This document shows positions 10,865 through 32,608 of a stretch of DNA of 37,027 nt, in pieces. Origin of the DNA: a virus (Duplodnaviria > Heunggongvirae > Uroviricota > Caudoviricetes). The DNA lies in the IMG/VR virus record IMGVR_UViG_2909303794_000007. One strand, written 5' to 3'. Positions within the stretch are counted from its first letter, which is position 1; each line of letters begins with the position of its first letter. A program made the position numbers and the translations under genes. Below the pieces are notes generated by a model, which saw nothing but the letters and a program-made list of their open reading frames with translations, did no database searches and was not told the DNA's origin.

Positions 10865-11140
10865 GTGGCTTCTGTTTCTATCAGCTGTCCCTCCTGTTCA
10901 GCTACTGACGGGGTGGTGCGTAACGGCAAAAGCACCGCCGGACATCAGCGCTATCTCTGCTCTCACTGCCGTAAAACATGGCAACTGCAGTTCACTTACA
11001 CCGCTTCTCAACCCGGTACGCACCAGAAAATCATTGATATGGCCATGAATGGCGTTGGATGCCGGGCAACAGCCCGCATTATGGGCGTTGGCCTCAACAC
11101 GATTTTACGTCACTTAAAAAACTCAGGCCGCAGTCGGTAA
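10865..11140 (+). CDS. insA: IS1 InsA
   Basis: 91 aa, [43 protein letters not shown]... Confidence 0.95.
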
Positions 11141-11562
11141 CCTCGCGCATACAGCCGGGCAGTGACGTCATCGTCTGCGCGGAAATGGACGAACAGTGGG
11201 GCTATGTCGGGGCTAAATCGTGCCAGCGCTGGCTGTTTTACGCGTATGACAGGCTCCGGAAGACGGTTGTTGCGCACGTATTCGGTGAACGCACGATGGC
11301 GACGCTGGGGCGTCTTATGAGCCTGCTGTCACCCTTTGACGTGGTGATATGGATGACGGATGGCTGGCCGCTGTATGAATCCCGCCTGAAGGGAAAGCTG
11401 CACGTAATCAGCAAGCGATATACGCAGCGAATTGAGCGGCATAACCTGAATCTGAGGCAGCACCTGGCACGGCTGGGACGGAAGTCGCTGTCGTTCTCAA
11501 AATCGGTGGAGCTGCATGACAAAGTCATCGGGCATTATCTGAACATAAAACACTATCAATAA
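11059..11562 (+). CDS. insB: IS1 InsB reading frame (expressed as InsAB' by programmed -1 frameshift)
   Basis: 167-aa ORF in the -1 frame relative to insA, ending ...[11 protein letters not shown]. Confidence 0.9.
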
Positions 11563-17193: not shown

Positions 17194-17507
17194 CGAATTT
17201 CTCCCGTGTACAGGAACAGAGTTAAAAAGCCGGAACCGGAATCAAATCACAGGATGACCATCTGCCAGTGGCTGGTCGTAAAAAAAAGGCCGCGCCATGC
17301 GCAGCCGGAAATAAAGGGATAACGATGATAGTTTGAGAAAAACAGAAATAACACTTTTGTGGCAAAGCATGGTGCCGGGTGCCTCCCGGTGAATTCAGTA
17401 CCAGCACCTGAATCCGCGATTATCCCATATACCTACTCGCTGATTGCCCCTCCGCACAGGGGGATTCACCATGCAGAAGTGTTTTTAATAAACAGCAAAC
17501 AAAAAAA

Positions 17508-18273: not shown

Positions 18274-18350
18274 TGGCGCGTTGTAGTGGAGTCGAACCAC
18301 TGACCGATTGCTTAGAAGGCAATTGCTCTGTCCGGCTGAGCTAACAACGC
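18274..18350 (-). tRNA. tRNA-Arg (anticodon UCU), phage argN/argO-like
   Basis: Reverse complement GCGTTGTTAGCTCAG...ATTGC-CTTCTAA-GCAAT...GGTTCGACTCC...ACAACGC-G-CCA: cloverleaf with anticodon loop CU-UCU-AA, T-arm GGTTCGACTCC and a 3' CCA. Confidence 0.85.
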
Positions 18351-18387
18351 AGAATACCGATAATGGACCGCCATCGGGGACCCGCCC

Positions 18388-19725
18388 CATAAGCGCTAAC
18401 TTAAGGGTTGAACCATCTGAAGAATGCGACGCCTCGGTGCCTCGTTAAGACGATGCCTCGCGTTCTTCAATTGCGTTTTGTAGGCTGTCAGGGATACTGT
18501 CCCACGAATGGCCACCTGTAAGCTCCAGATGACCATTTTTGTTATTCTCCACAACGAGTTAGTTCTTCTTTTCGGATCCGGCACTTCTGGGGGGGAAATC
18601 CAGCGATGGCTGGATTATGTCGTCAATTAAAAATGCGGCGAGTAGATTAGCAAATATCCACGCTTTCGCGAGTTCAGGTTCCTTTGCACGCAAAGCATCC
18701 AGGTGCAGCAAACTTTTGAGCCGCTTAAAAGCCAGTTCAATTTGCCATCGCAGACGGTAACAATCAGCCACTTGCTCTGCTGAATATTCATCTTCCGGTA
18801 ATGATGTTAGCAATAGCACATGGCCCGCTGCTTCCAGCGTTTCCGCCTGAACTACTCGTCCTTTTCGACGATTCTCGCTGAGCAGTCGGGTTTTACTGAT
18901 TAATGCTTTTTCGGGAGGAAGTGATACGGCAATGAGACGTGCCGGAAAGGGAGCTCCGGCTTTTTTATTACCTGAATTGCCTATCATTACAGTGGTTTCA
19001 CCGTTCTTACCGCAATCCAGCCCGCGCAGAAAACCCATCATGTCAAAGCGCATTCCTTCTGCAGTTAACCAGCGCAATCCTCGCCAGTGAACCCGGACGA
19101 TATAATCAGCTTCTCCAAAAGCAAGTGAGCGGATACATTCGGGACGCGAACCGAATCCCCGGTCAGCAATGCGTATCTCGTCTGCCGTTTGCGCAAATCG
19201 GTCCAGCCGTTCAGCGTCTCTGCTGTCGGTTAGCTCAAAATCAGTGAACTGACAGGTATGAGGATCATATCCCATATGTAGTCGCCATTCAGCGCTGCCG
19301 CCCCCGGGCGCACTGATTGCTGTTCCATCGACAAGACGCAATCTCTTTCCGCTTGTACAACCCGTAACTGCGGCGCGTACAGCAAGTGTTTGTGCGGCAA
19401 GTATGCCAAACCAGTCGGCGGCATTCCGCAGCCGCTTCAGGAGAGCCACGTCAGATAATGTTGCAACGTCATGGAGCTGAGCCCATGCAGTGACTTCACG
19501 TAATGACATCCCCCGGGGCCGTAAGCCAGCCCCAGACGTAGCAGAGTTGCAGCATCACGAATTTCGCGGCGGCGGGTTAGAGCCCCGGCATTACGTGCCG
19601 AAGTATCCAGTTCTTCGGGCTTACCAATATGGGCCAGAATTGCTGACCAGTTATCGTGAGAGTAATTCATCGGCACGTTAAATCATATCAGGCGTAATAC
19701 CACAACCCTTAAGTTAGCGCTTATG
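18388..19725 (-). mobile_element. IS186 (1338 bp) inserted into a GC-rich hairpin between the two phage tRNA genes
   Basis: Terminal inverted repeats cataagcgctaacttaagggttg (18388-18410) and caacccttaagttagcgcttatg (19703-19725), flanked by a direct repeat GGACCCGCCCC (~11 bp) at 18377-18387 and 19726-19736. Confidence 0.9.
18559..19676 (-). pseudogene. IS186 transposase (IS4 family) with a 1-bp frameshift near 19510-19514
   Basis: N-terminal ORF MNYSHDNWSAILAHIGKPEELDTSARNAG...GLAYGPGG and C-terminal ORF MSLREVTAWAQLHDV... are in different frames; one extra base in the G/C run would join them. Confidence 0.75.
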
Positions 19726-19798
19726 GGACCCGCCCCCGCACCAACAACCCTGTTATGGTGTCGTCTGCTCTTCCTGATAAGCTAATGGCGGTATGTGA

Positions 19799-19874
19799 TG
19801 GTGGCCCTTGCTGGATTTGAACCAGCGACCTGGCGATTATGAGTCGCTCGCTCTCACCACTGAGCTAAAGGGCC
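19799..19874 (-). tRNA. ileZ: tRNA with anticodon CAU, Ile2-like (phage ileZ-like)
   Basis: Reverse complement GGCCCTTTAGCTCAGTGGTGAGAGCGAGCGACTCATAATCGCCAGGTCGCTGGTTCAAATCCAGCAAGGGCCACCA closely resembles E. coli tRNA-Ile2 (ileX/ileY). Confidence 0.85.
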
Positions 19875-23967: not shown

Positions 23968-24123
23968 TTACTCCTCAGGTTCGTAAGCTGTGAAGACAGC
24001 GACCTCCGTCTGGCCGGTTCGGATTCGTACCTCGCAGAGGTCTTTCCTCGTTACCAGTGCCGTCACTATGACGGTTAAACAGATGACGATCAGGGCGATT
24101 AACATCGCCTTTTGCTGCTTCAT
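23968..24123 (-). CDS. hok: Hok/Gef-family type I toxin
   Basis: MKQQKAMLIALIVICLTVIVTALVTRKDLCEVRIRTGQTEVAVFTAYEPEE matches the Hok family (transmembrane helix, then RKxLCExR...EVAAF). Confidence 0.75.
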   Translation of the reverse strand: MKQQKAMLIALIVICLTVIVTALVTRKDLCEVRIRTGQTEVAVFTAYEPEE

Positions 24124-24194
24124 AGCCTGCTTCTCCTGTGTAAGTTCACAGAGATATTGCAATTGCCTCCGGATAAGTAAGGGGAGATTGCACT

Positions 24195-25283
24195 ATGCAA
24201 ATGCAGCATCTGATGGTTGGCTATCCTAAGTACTACCAAACGGCCGATTATGCGTTGAGGCTTTCAGTGATGGCTGATATAGCAACAATGAGAATGAAGG
24301 CTCTGCACTTCTGGGATAAACACGGTATTTCTGCAGCTTCTGAAGCCTTTGGCGTGTCCTGCCGCACGCTTTACTGGTGGCGTCAGTTACTGAACAAGGA
24401 AGGACCTGAGGGGCTAATCCCGCACAGTAAGGCACCTCTGGTGCGACGAAAAAAACACTGGCATCCCGATGTGCTGAAAGAGATTCGACGCCTCAGGACA
24501 GAGCTGCCGAACCTCGGTAAAGAGCAGATTTTTGTTCGCCTGAAGCCCTGGTGCGAACAGCGCTATCTGGCCTGTCCGAGTGTTTCCACCATCGGCAGAA
24601 TGATCGCTGCCGCACATGATAAAATGCGGATGATACCTGTGCGTCTGGGATCGCGGGGGAAGGCACTGCTTGTCAAAAAGCGGTCTGCCAAACCCCGCAG
24701 GCCAAAGCACTACCGCCCGGTAAAGACAGGTGAGCTCATTGGGATGGACGCCATTGAGCTCAGAATGGGCGAACTGCGTCGCTATGTCATCACCATGATC
24801 GACGAATGCAGCAATTACGCGCTGGCGCTGGCTGTGCCGTCACTCAACAGTGATATCGTCAATCACTTCTTCAGCCGCGCAGCCCGGTTGTTCCCGGTCG
24901 GTATCAGCCAGATAATCACAGATAACGGAAAAGAGTTCCTGGGAAACTTCGACAAAACGCTGCAGGAAGCCGCTATCAAACACCTCTGGACCTATCCCTA
25001 CACGCCAAAAATGAACGCTATCTGTGAACGTTTTAACCGGACGTTAAGAGAGCAGTTTATTGAATTTAATGAGATTTTACTCTTTGAAGATCTGGCGCTA
25101 TTTAACCAGAAGCTGGCGGAATATCTGGTGCTGTATAACAGCAAAAGACCCCACAAGGCGCTCGCACTAATGACGCCCGTGGAATATATTTTAAAAGAGA
25201 ATAAAAATTGCAATATGTGGTGGACCCATACATCTCCTTGCCTTTCGGCACGTAAGAGGCTAACCTACGTTTGTGAAGCATAG
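24195..25283 (+). CDS. DDE-type transposase/integrase (rve superfamily, N-terminal HTH; IS481-like single-ORF layout)
   Basis: 362 aa; N-terminal HTH region, central ...IITDNGKEF... and C-terminal ...YNSKRPHKAL... typical of the integrase core domain. The only plus-strand gene in a minus-strand block. IS ends not identified. Confidence 0.65.
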   Translation: MQMQHLMVGYPKYYQTADYALRLSVMADIATMRMKALHFWDKHGISAASEAFGVSCRTLYWWRQLLNKEGPEGLIPHSKAPLVRRKKHWHPDVLKEIRRLRTELPNLGKEQIFVRLKPWCEQRYLACPSVSTIGRMIAAAHDKMRMIPVRLGSRGKALLVKKRSAKPRRPKHYRPVKTGELIGMDAIELRMGELRRYVITMIDECSNYALALAVPSLNSDIVNHFFSRAARLFPVGISQIITDNGKEFLGNFDKTLQEAAIKHLWTYPYTPKMNAICERFNRTLREQFIEFNEILLFEDLALFNQKLAEYLVLYNSKRPHKALALMTPVEYILKENKNCNMWWTHTSPCLSARKRLTYVCEA

Positions 25284-25689
25284 ATTGGGCCTCAGATTAA
25301 TGTTAAGCGTCTTGCAGGACGCGTAATGTTAACTGGGGCTTTTCTCTGTCTGCCTTACGGTGGCATGCCCGAGGCAGACAGCCTCAAGCACCCGCAGCAA
25401 TTCTACTTAACTCTCGCTTTACCGCAAACCGTTTTTACCCGATATGGGAATTCCCATATCGTAATGAATTCAGTTCCCTAGTCGATCCATCAAAAACACA
25501 ACCAGGCAGTAAACGCCCACAACAGCAACAACAGCCAGCGCACCTTCCATTGCCAGTGATATATCATCCGACATATTCCCTCCTTTGGTGTTAATCCCGG
25601 CGAACGTTTTTACCCTCACCGACAAATAACATATACTAAAAAAGCGATAGCCATAGCAACGCCTGTAATTGCAAATGCTTCAGGCCAGT

Positions 25690-30036: not shown

Positions 30037-30462
30037 TCAATGAACTGCCACAGCATTTCCTGCCGGGCCACCACGGTTCATCTGATTGAAACCGGCGATT
30101 GCCACTGCTACAAAATCATCAGCGTCTCTCACCAGTCGCTCCCGCGTCTCCACCAGCTCCCGAAAATAAGCTGAACTGTGGCTGCGCATTCTGGCCACCA
30201 GCAAAGGTGGCATTGCCTTTTCGATCGCTGGTAACAACGCCTGAATTTTTTCAACTGCATCAGGGGTGTCTTTCTCTACCCAGCGGAAAATTTTCTGGGT
30301 ATTACGGGCTAGGGCTTCCGGATGGCTGTCGTCATACAGTTCCGGGAACGTCATTCCCAGCTCGAAATACGCTTTGGTAATTTTCGCAGCCGGTACTTTT
30401 TCGCCGTCCGGATGCGCCCAGACATTCATCGCCATGCGGATGTGTTCATGCTTGATTTTCAT
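30037..30462 (-). CDS. YdaT-like protein (cII position)
   Basis: 141 aa starting MKIKHEHI..., as I recall for Rac YdaT; immediately downstream of the cro-like gene. Confidence 0.5.
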   Translation of the reverse strand: MKIKHEHIRMAMNVWAHPDGEKVPAAKITKAYFELGMTFPELYDDSHPEALARNTQKIFRWVEKDTPDAVEKIQALLPAIEKAMPPLLVARMRSHSSAYFRELVETRERLVRDADDFVAVAIAGFNQMNRGGPAGNAVAVH

Positions 30463-30674
30463 GAATCATTCTTTCCTTCGTTTGAGGTGCTATCCTGCTT
30501 CTTGTAAAGTTCTGGGTTGTATTTCAATTCACCGTTAGTAATTTCATCCAGTTCCATTGCGCGAAGTTTGGGAATAACTGCTTTCCACCGCACAACAGCC
30601 ACATGTGAAATTCCAAGAGCCTCAGCTACTAGTCGCTTTTTTTTGAAATAGCGCAGAACATCATCTTTGAACAT
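30459..30674 (-). CDS. cro: Cro-like (YdaS-type) HTH regulator
   Basis: 71 aa with HTH (RLVAEALGISHVAVVRW); divergent from the repressor gene. Confidence 0.7.
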   Translation of the reverse strand: MFKDDVLRYFKKKRLVAEALGISHVAVVRWKAVIPKLRAMELDEITNGELKYNPELYKKQDSTSNEGKNDS

Positions 30675-30703
30675 AAAACTCTCCTGTTATTTCGAGTAGA
30701 AGG

Positions 30704-30765
30704 GTAACAATAGTTACATAACAATGTCAACCATAGCAACATCACTTGGTAGTAACATTGGTTAC
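30704..30765. promoter_or_regulatory. Immunity-region operators: two GTAAC-N4-GTTAC palindromes between the cro-like gene and cI
   Basis: GTAACAATAGTTAC (30704-30717) and GTAACATTGGTTAC (30752-30765); the second abuts the cI ATG. Confidence 0.6.
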
Positions 30766-31440
30766 ATGAAAAACACTATCAGCGAACGTATTCGGAATCG
30801 TCGAAAAGACGTTGGATTAACCCAACAGCAGGTTGCGAAAGCAATCGGCATATCTCGTGTATCCGTAACAAAATGGGAAAATGGCTCTTCAAAACCTGAC
30901 GGTGAGAATTTGTATCTACTGTCAAAATTGCTTTCCAAATCTCCTGAATGGATTCTTTATGGAAAGGACGGTCACGATAAAGCCGATGATCTGCGTCTGA
31001 ATCAGTACCCTTACATTAGTGACAACATCGCCCGGTTGCCCGTTTTAACGTGGGAACAGGCTGGTTATTGGGATATGAGTTGTCCAGTAACCGAGATTCC
31101 TGGTATTAAGAATTGGGTTGATGTCATGACAAAAACCGCTGAAAACTCTTTTTTATTGCATGTTGAGGGAGATGCGATGACAAACTCTAACGGCCTCCCA
31201 ACCATCCCCGACGGATCTACCGTGCTGATCACACCATGCTCAAGTAACATTAGAGAACTGGTGGGAAAAATAATCTTAATCCAATTGGAAGGAACGCCAA
31301 ACGTAACACTAAAAAAAGTTGCGATTGACGGACCAAACATCTATCTGTTGTCACTGAATCCGCTTTACAAACCCATCGAACTGAATGGTGGTTACACCAT
31401 TAAAGGTAAAGTTTCACAAATACATCAATACTTAGACTGA
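30766..31440 (+). CDS. cI: CI-like repressor (N-terminal HTH, C-terminal S24/LexA-like domain with GDAM in place of the usual Gxx-S-M nucleophile motif)
   Basis: HTH LTQQQVAKAIGISRVSVTKWENG; C-terminal ...LLHVEGDAMTNS...VTLKKV... aligns with LexA/lambda CI Ser-Lys dyad positions. Start taken at MKNTISER (30766); the track ORF begins at 30724. Confidence 0.8.
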   Translation: MKNTISERIRNRRKDVGLTQQQVAKAIGISRVSVTKWENGSSKPDGENLYLLSKLLSKSPEWILYGKDGHDKADDLRLNQYPYISDNIARLPVLTWEQAGYWDMSCPVTEIPGIKNWVDVMTKTAENSFLLHVEGDAMTNSNGLPTIPDGSTVLITPCSSNIRELVGKIILIQLEGTPNVTLKKVAIDGPNIYLLSLNPLYKPIELNGGYTIKGKVSQIHQYLD

Positions 31441-31446
31441 GTCAGA

Positions 31447-31473
31447 ACCCGCATTCATTGCGGGTTTTTCATG
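31447..31473 (+). terminator. Rho-independent terminator after cI
   Basis: aacccgcaTTCATtgcgggtt stem-loop followed by tttt. Confidence 0.6.
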
Positions 31474-31502
31474 CCCTCAAATGTACCTTTTGCAACATTG
31501 TA

Positions 31503-31528
31503 TTGACTCAAAAGGTAACTCTTGTTAC
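31503..31528 (+). promoter_or_regulatory. Putative PL-type promoter with a third operator palindrome
   Basis: TTGACT (31503-31508) followed by GTAACTCTTGTTAC (31515-31528), the same GTAAC-N4-GTTAC motif as at the cro/cI junction. Confidence 0.5.
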
Positions 31529-31712
31529 CTTAACAACATACCAACCCACCCCGCCCCACAGAACGCCGGGCAATACTTCGAGTTACCAAGCAGTGGTCAG
31601 GGGGTAAGTAGCCAGCCCGAGGCGTATGAACATGACGGCGGGAACACTTTGTATAACAGCGCAGCAGGTTTTTAGTTCCGCTACCCCAGCGTTAAGGGGA
31701 AATGAGGTCAGC

Positions 31713-31865
31713 ATGGATACTATCGATCTTGGCAACAACGAATCTCTGGTGTACGGCGTGTTTCCCAACCAGGACGGCACGTTTACCGCGATGACGTATA
31801 CCAGAAGCAAAACGTTTAAAACTGAAGCTGGCGCGCGTCGCTGGTTAACCAGAAACACTGACTGA
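31713..31865 (+). CDS. YdfA-like small protein (50 aa)
   Basis: MDTIDLGNNESLVYGVFPNQDGTFTAMTYTRSKTFKTEAGARRWLTRNTD resembles Qin YdfA as I recall it; GAGG Shine-Dalgarno upstream. Confidence 0.55.
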   Translation: MDTIDLGNNESLVYGVFPNQDGTFTAMTYTRSKTFKTEAGARRWLTRNTD

Positions 31866-32251
31866 TGAGGTTGACGATGGAATTTAAAGATTTACCAGTA
31901 CCATTCCAGGAAATGGCATCGAATGTGGTTCGCTCTCAACTGGCGACTCTTGACCTGAGTACCGTAGAAAAAGAAACCATCGATACTATATCCGGTAACG
32001 TGCGTCGTGCCTTTATCGGTCTGTACGAAGAGAAGCAGCTCTCTGATAACCAGGATTTACATGAAAAATACTTCCTGGAATTAATGGACATCATTAATAA
32101 AGGATTTGGCTTGTTAATGAAAAAGAAAGGGATTCGAATAGCTCCCCTTGAAAATCATTTTACAGCGAGCAGTATTAATTCCTGTGATTTAAAGCATCAC
32201 ACATCCGATGGGAAAGTTGAATCAAACAACAAAATATCAATTAATCATTAA
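31865..32251 (+). CDS. Hypothetical protein (128 aa), start overlapping the ydfA-like stop
   Basis: ORF in the left operon; ATGA start/stop overlap. Confidence 0.4.
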   Translation: MRLTMEFKDLPVPFQEMASNVVRSQLATLDLSTVEKETIDTISGNVRRAFIGLYEEKQLSDNQDLHEKYFLELMDIINKGFGLLMKKKGIRIAPLENHFTASSINSCDLKHHTSDGKVESNNKISINH

Positions 32252-32552: not shown

Positions 32553-32608
32553 TTTCTGGTGACGTTTGGCGGTATCAGTTTTACTCCGTGACTGCTCTGC
32601 CGCCCTTT
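32553..32608 (+). ncRNA. dicF: DicF small RNA homologue (cell-division-inhibiting sRNA)
   Basis: tttctggtgacgtttggcggtatcagttttactccgtgactgctctgccgcccttttt matches DicF as I remember it (3' intrinsic terminator ggcgg...ccgcc-U5) and lies immediately upstream of dicB as in Qin. Confidence 0.6.

Follow-up and report, generated by a model that had tools for sequence, protein, structure and literature searches.

The stretch of DNA analysed here (the window, 37,027 nucleotides) corresponds to positions ~3,098,276-3,135,302 of the Escherichia coli 14EC007 chromosome (NZ_CP024131.1). It carries a lambdoid prophage that is inserted beside yccA and has tccP2 and a tRNA-Ser gene at its opposite end. 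The PGAP annotation describes a defective element, in which an IS1A copy cuts the tape-measure gene, the terminase, portal and capsid genes are absent, IS421 and IS481-family elements have inserted and a few genes are pseudogenes. The IS1A and IS421 regions are found at 10865-11562 and 18274-19874, and the truncation of the tape-measure gene by IS1A marks the head-gene deletion. The cargo of the prophage comprises tccP2, a PerC/Pch-like gene, dicF, dicB and hokD. A defective prophage equipped with tccP, a Pch-like gene, dicF, dicB and hok had been proposed in an earlier sequence-only reading of this DNA, a description with which the Pfam, PGAP and Rfam assignments agree.

Several smaller features accompany this gene content. 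The IS421 copy is frameshifted and stands between the prophage tRNA-Arg and tRNA-Ile genes, and a TerB-family gene has an internal stop. The hok/sok module (23968-25393) is split by the IS481-family element, whose transposase gene (24195-25283, plus strand) lies between the hokD ORF (23968-24123, minus strand) and the sok/mok leader (25227-25393, minus strand, Rfam sok match); in E2855, hokD and this leader are contiguous. The tccP2 gene (1-1070) has more copies of a 141-bp proline-rich repeat than tccP2 of E2855, as deduced from self-offset BLAST matches at multiples of 141 bp. The sRNA family STnc100 has a full-length match (101.5 bits, 17331-17503, minus strand) upstream of the gene for a SASA-family esterase, within the late region.

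The immunity region is intact and consists of a P22-type cro, a YdaT-like gene and a plus-strand repressor gene. The divergent cro (30459-30674, minus strand) encodes a P22_Cro family protein of 71 amino acids (Pfam PF14549, E 2.9e-16; PGAP). In the PGAP gene order, the repressor is followed on its 3' side by ydfA-like genes, DicF (32554-32605, Rfam, 76.7 bits), dicB, an exonuclease gene, xis and int. The repressor is a CI-type protein of 224 amino acids when read from the Met at 30766 (30766-31440, plus strand), as identified from the ORF list, Pfam (HTH_3 and Peptidase_S24) and PGAP. The PGAP model is longer (30724-31440, 238 amino acids, WP_000103686.1, 'LexA family protein'). The true start is probably at 30766 and the PGAP start at 30724 14 codons too far upstream, since the additional 14 codons show a dN/dS of ~1, are modelled with a pLDDT below 50 (as are residues 1-15 of the AF2 model in general) and have an operator inside, and since distant homologues start at the Met of 30766. 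The repressor may be translated from a leaderless or almost leaderless mRNA, comparable to lambda cI transcribed from PRM.

The N-terminal helix-turn-helix DNA-binding domain (residues 9-63, 30790-30954, plus strand) was recognized as Pfam HTH_3 (E 3.5e-17), matches the N-domain of P22 C2 in a HMMER comparison with solved structures (E 1.4e-12) and resembles 3jxb in fold with a Foldseek TM of 0.95. The C-terminal S24 peptidase-like domain (residues 92-216, 31039-31413, plus strand; Pfam PF00717, Peptidase_S24, E 9.5e-17) matches the lambda CI C-domain (E 1e-10; Foldseek 1kca/1f39, TM ~0.8, rmsd 2.0 A), and the whole protein aligns end to end with the lambda repressor structure 3bdn (HMMER, E 4e-14). 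An AlphaFold model (mean pLDDT 76.7), in which the linker of residues 84-100 is disordered, matches the lambda repressor, the P22 C2 N-domain and LexA in Foldseek, a comparison that holds at the level of the fold. The family profile likewise reaches LexA and UmuD' in the PDB. The lambda-CI architecture claimed in the earlier reading is upheld by Pfam and by the HMMER match to lambda CI.

Predicted operators lie on both sides of the gene. The three best matches to GGTAAC-N4-GTTACC in the whole window start at 30703, 30751 and 31514. GGTAACAATAGTTACA (30703-30718) is located between cro and the repressor gene, AGTAACATTGGTTACA (30751-30766) abuts the ATG at 30766 and GGTAACTCTTGTTACC (31514-31529), the only site with zero mismatches, is an OL-like element ahead of the ydfA-dicF-dicB-exo-xis-int operon. 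Directly 3' of the stop codon, inspection by eye revealed a hairpin, AACCCGCA-TTCAT-TGCGGGTT, followed by a T run (31446-31469, plus strand), which is conserved in the E. coli alleles and is probably the terminator of the repressor transcript. A consensus promoter and terminator scan of 30400-31900 returned nothing useful and did not report this hairpin.

The striking residue of the repressor is found at the nucleophile motif of its S24 domain. This motif reads V-E-G-D-A-M-T, with E-G-D-A-M-T encoded by GAG GGA GAT GCG ATG ACA at 31165-31182 (plus strand), and has Ala in the column of the catalytic Ser; the replacing residue is Ala137 (GCG, 31174-31176, plus strand). The other elements of the self-cleavage site are retained, namely Lys183, the first Lys of VTLKK (31312-31314, plus strand) and the equivalent of lambda K192, LexA K156 and UmuD K97, and Ala99-Gly100 (GCT GGT in EQAG, 31060-31065, plus strand), the equivalent of the scissile Ala111-Gly112 bond of lambda CI. 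In the HMMER alignment with lambda CI (3bdn), which is gap-free near the motif, FLLHVEGDAMT lies over FWLEVEGNSMT with its Ser149, VTLKK over FTFKK with Lys192 and EQAG over VQAG with Ala111-Gly112. A MAFFT alignment with lambda CI, LexA and UmuD sequences placed the Ala in one column with Ser149, Ser119 and Ser60, found the catalytic Lys and the scissile-bond Gly invariant, and aligned Ala99-Gly100 with Ala111-Gly112 of lambda CI, the Ala-Gly of LexA and the Cys-Gly of UmuD.

The column assignment of the sequence-only reading is thereby confirmed by alignment: a lambda CI-like repressor with Ala in the nucleophile column, encoded by a codon one nucleotide away from a Ser codon (GCG versus TCG), and with the VTLKK Lys 46 residues downstream (Ala137 to Lys183). 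Its motif proved correct and its coordinates, 31166-31183, have to be moved one base to the left. The Ser of the adjacent MTNSN had been named as a residue that might instead occupy the nucleophile position. It was rejected, as it is also present in Ser alleles (GDSMTNSN) and missing from a Salmonella Ala allele (GDAMTNPN), and as the gap-free alignment around the motif rules it out, so that the Ala reading stands. No Ser that could compensate for Ala137 was seen among the aligned Ser and Ala alleles. Self-cleaving S24 proteins are characterized by an Ala-Gly or Cys-Gly bond and a Ser-Lys dyad (PMC8565304). The repressor possesses the Ala-Gly bond, which is retained in all close Ser and Ala alleles, and the Lys, expected ~37-46 residues downstream, and lacks the Ser nucleophile.

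The distribution of the allele was analyzed in complete E. coli genomes. The repressor gene is present in 702 of 5426 (~13%), with an identity of at least 99% in 679 of them. A 61-mer centred on the Ala codon occurs with GCG as an exact match in 681 of 683 complete E. coli genomes, and the Ala is therefore not a sequencing accident; of the two genomes with a single mismatch, the one that was checked still has GCG. The corresponding 61-mer with TCG has no exact match in any complete E. coli genome, and the count in IMG/VR is 73 GCG to 1 TCA. The Ala allele resides at three attachment sites (yccA, ompW and serU) in prophages with differing late-gene modules, some of which are nearly complete, and near-identical copies (0-3 differences) were found in E2855, ST131, ETEC6 and APEC 102026. 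The E2855 prophage, at yccA with tccP2, has an identical repressor protein and IS damage that differs from that of the window. In ST131 and ETEC6 the Ala repressor prophage occupies ompW, and the ST131 copies (L003 and L016) have head, tail and lysis genes, a frameshifted gpJ and a lom gene cut by ISEc12. The APEC 102026 prophage (L020, 1-26344) lies at a tRNA-Ser beside mtfA; its late region, compact and HK97-like, looks complete, and int alone is frameshifted. Prophages at ompW have been reported to be generally defective and stably kept (PMC8112680), which fits a prophage group that rarely leaves its host. An allele of at least 99% identity in phylogroups as distant as ST131, ETEC, APEC and EHEC, carried by nearly complete prophages, implies recent horizontal movement of the phage group.

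These data bear on the simplest account of the Ala codon, in which a decaying prophage acquired a one-off Ser-to-Ala (ind-) mutation that, combined with head-gene loss, locked it in the repressed state. The single nucleotide that separates the Ala codon from a Ser codon is in keeping with such an event, as is the clearly defective state of the window prophage with its IS1A-cut tape-measure gene, missing terminase, portal and capsid genes and IS421 and IS481 insertions. It is nevertheless very improbable, since the allele is fixed across many lineages (~680 genomes) and three attachment sites, E2855 combines an identical protein with different IS damage, and two Ala alleles separated by a dS of 0.69 both use GCG and show a dN/dS of 0.05. 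The diverged Ala pair, the E2855 copy and the ~680 genomes together indicate that the substitution long predates the decay of the window prophage, and its presence in E2855, ST131, ETEC and APEC prophages at other sites that it is independent of this decay. The head genes of the window prophage were lost separately, through IS elements, and this prophage cannot make particles for reasons other than its repressor. The tie between the Ala change and the decay of the prophage, implied in the sequence-only reading, has to be given up in view of the 702 of 5426 genomes that carry the gene, the zero TCG versions and the dN/dS of 0.05. Judged from the alleles compared, Ala is the majority form of an entire immunity group, maintained by selection, and not a recent lesion of the window prophage.

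A comparison of GDSM and GDAM alleles, which the earlier reading had called for, uncovered a natural Ser/Ala pair with Ala in the majority. A divergent, Ser-type allele is present in only 8 of 5426 complete genomes, and the three prophages examined, a small sample, all read GDSM (TCA). Two of them are Stx2a prophages, one in O178:H19 2012C-4431 next to rspB and one in JNE120393 at yccA, and the third is a non-Stx prophage in ST130 at yccA; the window prophage therefore occupies a site used by two of the three. The Stx2a loci with Ser alleles were located at L018 976-2216 and 12081-12797 and at L004 3928-5168 and 15001-15717. The Ser-allele proteins (WP_028985609.1, WP_024173670.1) are ~87% identical to the window repressor and are accompanied by a near-identical cro. 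Within the close clade, Ala is encoded by GCG in the window, C8 and ST131 alleles and in an allele of 89% identity (P0002), and by GCA in a Salmonella allele of 68% identity (P0005). Ser is encoded by TCA in the O178:H19 allele and in P0003 (~87% identical) and by TCG in P0006 (65% identical). At least two Ser/Ala switches are needed to explain this pattern; the tree of these few alleles is nearly a star, and the window and P0002 lineages are likely to have inherited Ala from a common ancestor.

The motif consensus of the wider family is G[DE]SM. When full-length relatives are taken at the 50% cluster level (127), Ser occupies the position in 106, Ala in 9 (four of them of this clade), Thr in 6 and other residues in a few, so that Ser is missing in ~15% of related repressors, and the Lys is kept in 119. 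Thr is found in P0031, P0049, P0064, P0105, P0118 and P0170 and Ala in the independent lineages P0041, P0104, P0109 and P0156, with the Lys kept in nearly all of these Thr and Ala relatives. Loss or change of the nucleophile thus seems to be recurrent among HTH-S24 repressors. The remaining relatives with Ala or Thr are unannotated singletons from metagenomes, and the six closest repressors from phages that were cultured or induced (36-43% identity) have Ser throughout. The absence of the Ala allele from cultured phages, where the best match reaches 43% identity, was considered as a sign of non-inducibility and dropped, as the Ser alleles are equally absent.

The coding sequences of both forms are under purifying selection. 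Across alleles the dN/dS ranges from 0.06 to 0.13 in the N-domain and from 0.03 to 0.10 in the C-domain. The C-domains of the window and P0002 alleles, both Ala, differ by a dS of 0.69 and a dN of 0.036 (dN/dS 0.05), a ratio similarly low to that between two Ser alleles (0.10). The low value between Ala alleles means that the S24 domain is held by selection without its nucleophile, most simply, we infer, for dimerization and cooperative binding as in lambda CI. The heavily degraded state of the window prophage might invite the view that the repressor is a functionless remnant in which Ala arose by neutral drift. This is hardly conceivable for a gene whose ORF is intact in every copy examined, whose neighbour cro is intact as well, whose two domains both show a dN/dS of 0.03-0.13, whose operators are invariant and whose nucleophile position holds only Ser or Ala in the clade.

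The invariance of the operators extends across the two forms. All three sites are unchanged in seven alleles, whether Ser or Ala and down to 65% protein identity, and the DNA between them varies; the recognition helix of the repressor is conserved across the alleles. On these grounds the Ser and Ala forms are very likely homoimmune. The repressor of the window is most likely the working immunity repressor of a lambdoid prophage, with an N-terminal helix-turn-helix that is predicted to bind the GGTAAC-N4-GTTACC operators, of which two lie in the cro-repressor interval and the third precedes the leftward early operon. Its C-terminal S24-fold domain would have been kept for dimerization and cooperativity and would have lost the Ser nucleophile, with the Lys base and the Ala-Gly bond remaining.

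Serine-to-alanine substitution is the standard way to obtain an uncleavable LexA and has been used to trap LexA-RecA complexes. In LexA S119A and in Ser149 mutants of lambda CI, both RecA-stimulated and alkaline self-cleavage are abolished, and folding and DNA binding are kept. Among the solved structures listed by Foldseek for the repressor are such S-to-A forms of LexA (1jhh S119A, 6a2s S160A and 8s7g S125A). By analogy with these mutants, the Ala repressor would be unable to undergo RecA-stimulated self-cleavage, and there is good reason to regard it as a functional repressor and a natural ind- allele. Repression of dicB, dicF, exo and the lysis genes would then persist through the SOS response, immunity to phages with matching operators would hold under DNA damage and, as for lambda ind-, the Ala form would be dominant over a co-resident Ser allele. 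Prophages with the Ala repressor probably stay silent during SOS. Cleavage or induction data on the window repressor were not found in the literature.

An ind- repressor blocks RecA-mediated induction alone and leaves lytic growth on infection, spontaneous switching and anti-repression unaffected. The sequence-only reading had described a prophage 'locked' in the repressed state; a block of the RecA route is what the substitution predicts, whereas the word is too strong for the group as a whole, to which other lytic routes would be available. Anti-repressors are known from Gifsy, 186 (Tum), N15 (AntC) and P22 (Ant). It is accordingly possible, although the chances are below even, that the group lacks self-cleavage and is nonetheless induced in another way, by an anti-repressor encoded by the same or another prophage or by a host protease. 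Such a route is compatible with an ind- repressor and would alter the 'locked' part alone. It would agree with the recent movement of an allele that is at least 99% identical in ST131, ETEC, APEC and EHEC and is carried by nearly complete prophages, and the ST131 prophage has ash and Rha-family genes at its far end. In the window, however, PGAP annotates no anti-repressor, under LexA control or otherwise, and a scan for CTGT-N8-ACAG gave 17 LexA-box-like matches against 12.5 expected by chance, the best of which, a perfect site at 24136, is the end of the IS481-family element. Anti-repressor control is common for non-cleavable repressors of enterobacterial prophages, but the repressors known to be controlled in this way are short and have no S24 domain (PMC3121763).

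The conservation of the remaining cleavage elements is also worth considering. Lineages in which Ala is long established still have the Lys and the Ala-Gly bond, which could mean that the site is still used, for instance as a substrate cleaved in trans, or could have structural reasons. During SOS, a Ser relative, such as that of a homoimmune Stx2a phage, might cut the Ala repressor at Ala-Gly within mixed dimers, so that induction would need a helper. Ala lineages show full conservation of the scissile bond and of the strand that flanks it, Ser alleles of ~87% identity with identical operators exist in Stx2a prophages at yccA, and cleavage between molecules is known for UmuD and, to a weak degree, for LexA and CI. 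Yet cleavage of lambda CI is essentially intramolecular, ind- is dominant over ind+ in lambda genetics, which is the opposite outcome, no examined genome has both alleles and structural constraints can account for the conserved strand. Cleavage in trans is therefore a most unlikely route.

With the natural ind- allele as the preferred reading, a wider evolutionary scenario may be sketched, which at present is tentative and rather less probable than not. The Ser/Ala alternative at the nucleophile could act as an evolutionary toggle within one immunity group, in which the rare Ser form is carried by SOS-inducible phages including Stx2a converters and the Ala form has spread (~13% of E. coli genomes) as an SOS-proof, trans-dominant immunity device. 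If this were true, homoimmune Stx2a phages would meet resistance in a cell with an Ala prophage, and their induction and the release of toxin would be held down there even when the DNA is damaged.

Should the Ala repressor prove uncleavable, one natural substitution would decouple a large class of E. coli prophages from SOS. This class includes the TccP2-carrying prophages of attaching-effacing strains and the conserved ST131 prophage. Such decoupling would help to explain the stable upkeep of effector-carrying prophages and why SOS-triggering antibiotics would not mobilize them, and it bears on whether resident Ala prophages shield their hosts from Stx2a phages of this immunity type or silence such phages. 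An annotation as 'LexA family' or 'S24 peptidase' is then no guarantee of SOS inducibility. As categories, prophage repressors outside SOS control and S24 homologues without catalytic activity are known, and the S-to-A exchange is the textbook ind- change. The literature search retrieved no natural Ser-to-Ala CI allele that is fixed across a widespread immunity group of E. coli, no strong purifying selection on such an allele, no rare Ser alleles on Stx2a phages sharing operators with an Ala allele and nothing specific on whether tccP2 prophages or the ompW prophage of ST131 can be induced.

Among known systems, lambda CI and P22 C2 are the closest in build. They share with the window repressor, which is ~27% identical to lambda CI, the two-domain architecture and fold (best PDB matches 3bdn, 8gmu and, for the C-domain, 1kca; 3jxb for the N-domain), the Ala-Gly bond, the Lys, a divergent cro and operators, here predicted, between the two genes and before the leftward operon. 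They differ from it in that its natural majority allele has Ala for Ser and is expected to lack RecA-stimulated self-cleavage, the step that defines their induction. Laboratory ind- mutants (LexA S119A and lambda CI Ser149 substitutions) have the same change at the same position, fold, dimerize and bind DNA, and are not cleaved. These proteins were engineered or selected in the laboratory, whereas the Ala of the window repressor belongs to a wild allele that is found in hundreds of genomes under purifying selection. LexA3(Ind-), the product of lexA3, is a described ind- form (PMC3121763).

The repressors GfoR and GtgR of the Gifsy prophages, DicA and RacR resemble the window repressor in their setting, as they belong to lambdoid or cryptic prophages of enterobacteria, act outside RecA cleavage and are associated with early regions that contain dicB, dicF and ydfA-C. 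Repressors of this type have ~150 amino acids, lack an S24 domain and are switched off by anti-repressors under LexA control (PMC3121763). The window repressor, in contrast, has 224 amino acids and a full S24 domain, and the window contains neither an anti-repressor nor a credible LexA box. Its nearest counterparts are the Ser alleles of its own immunity group, which are ~87% identical, have identical operators and a near-identical cro and, in two of three cases, lie at yccA; they are set apart by GDSM (TCA), by their rarity and by the presence of at least two of them in Stx2a-converting prophages.
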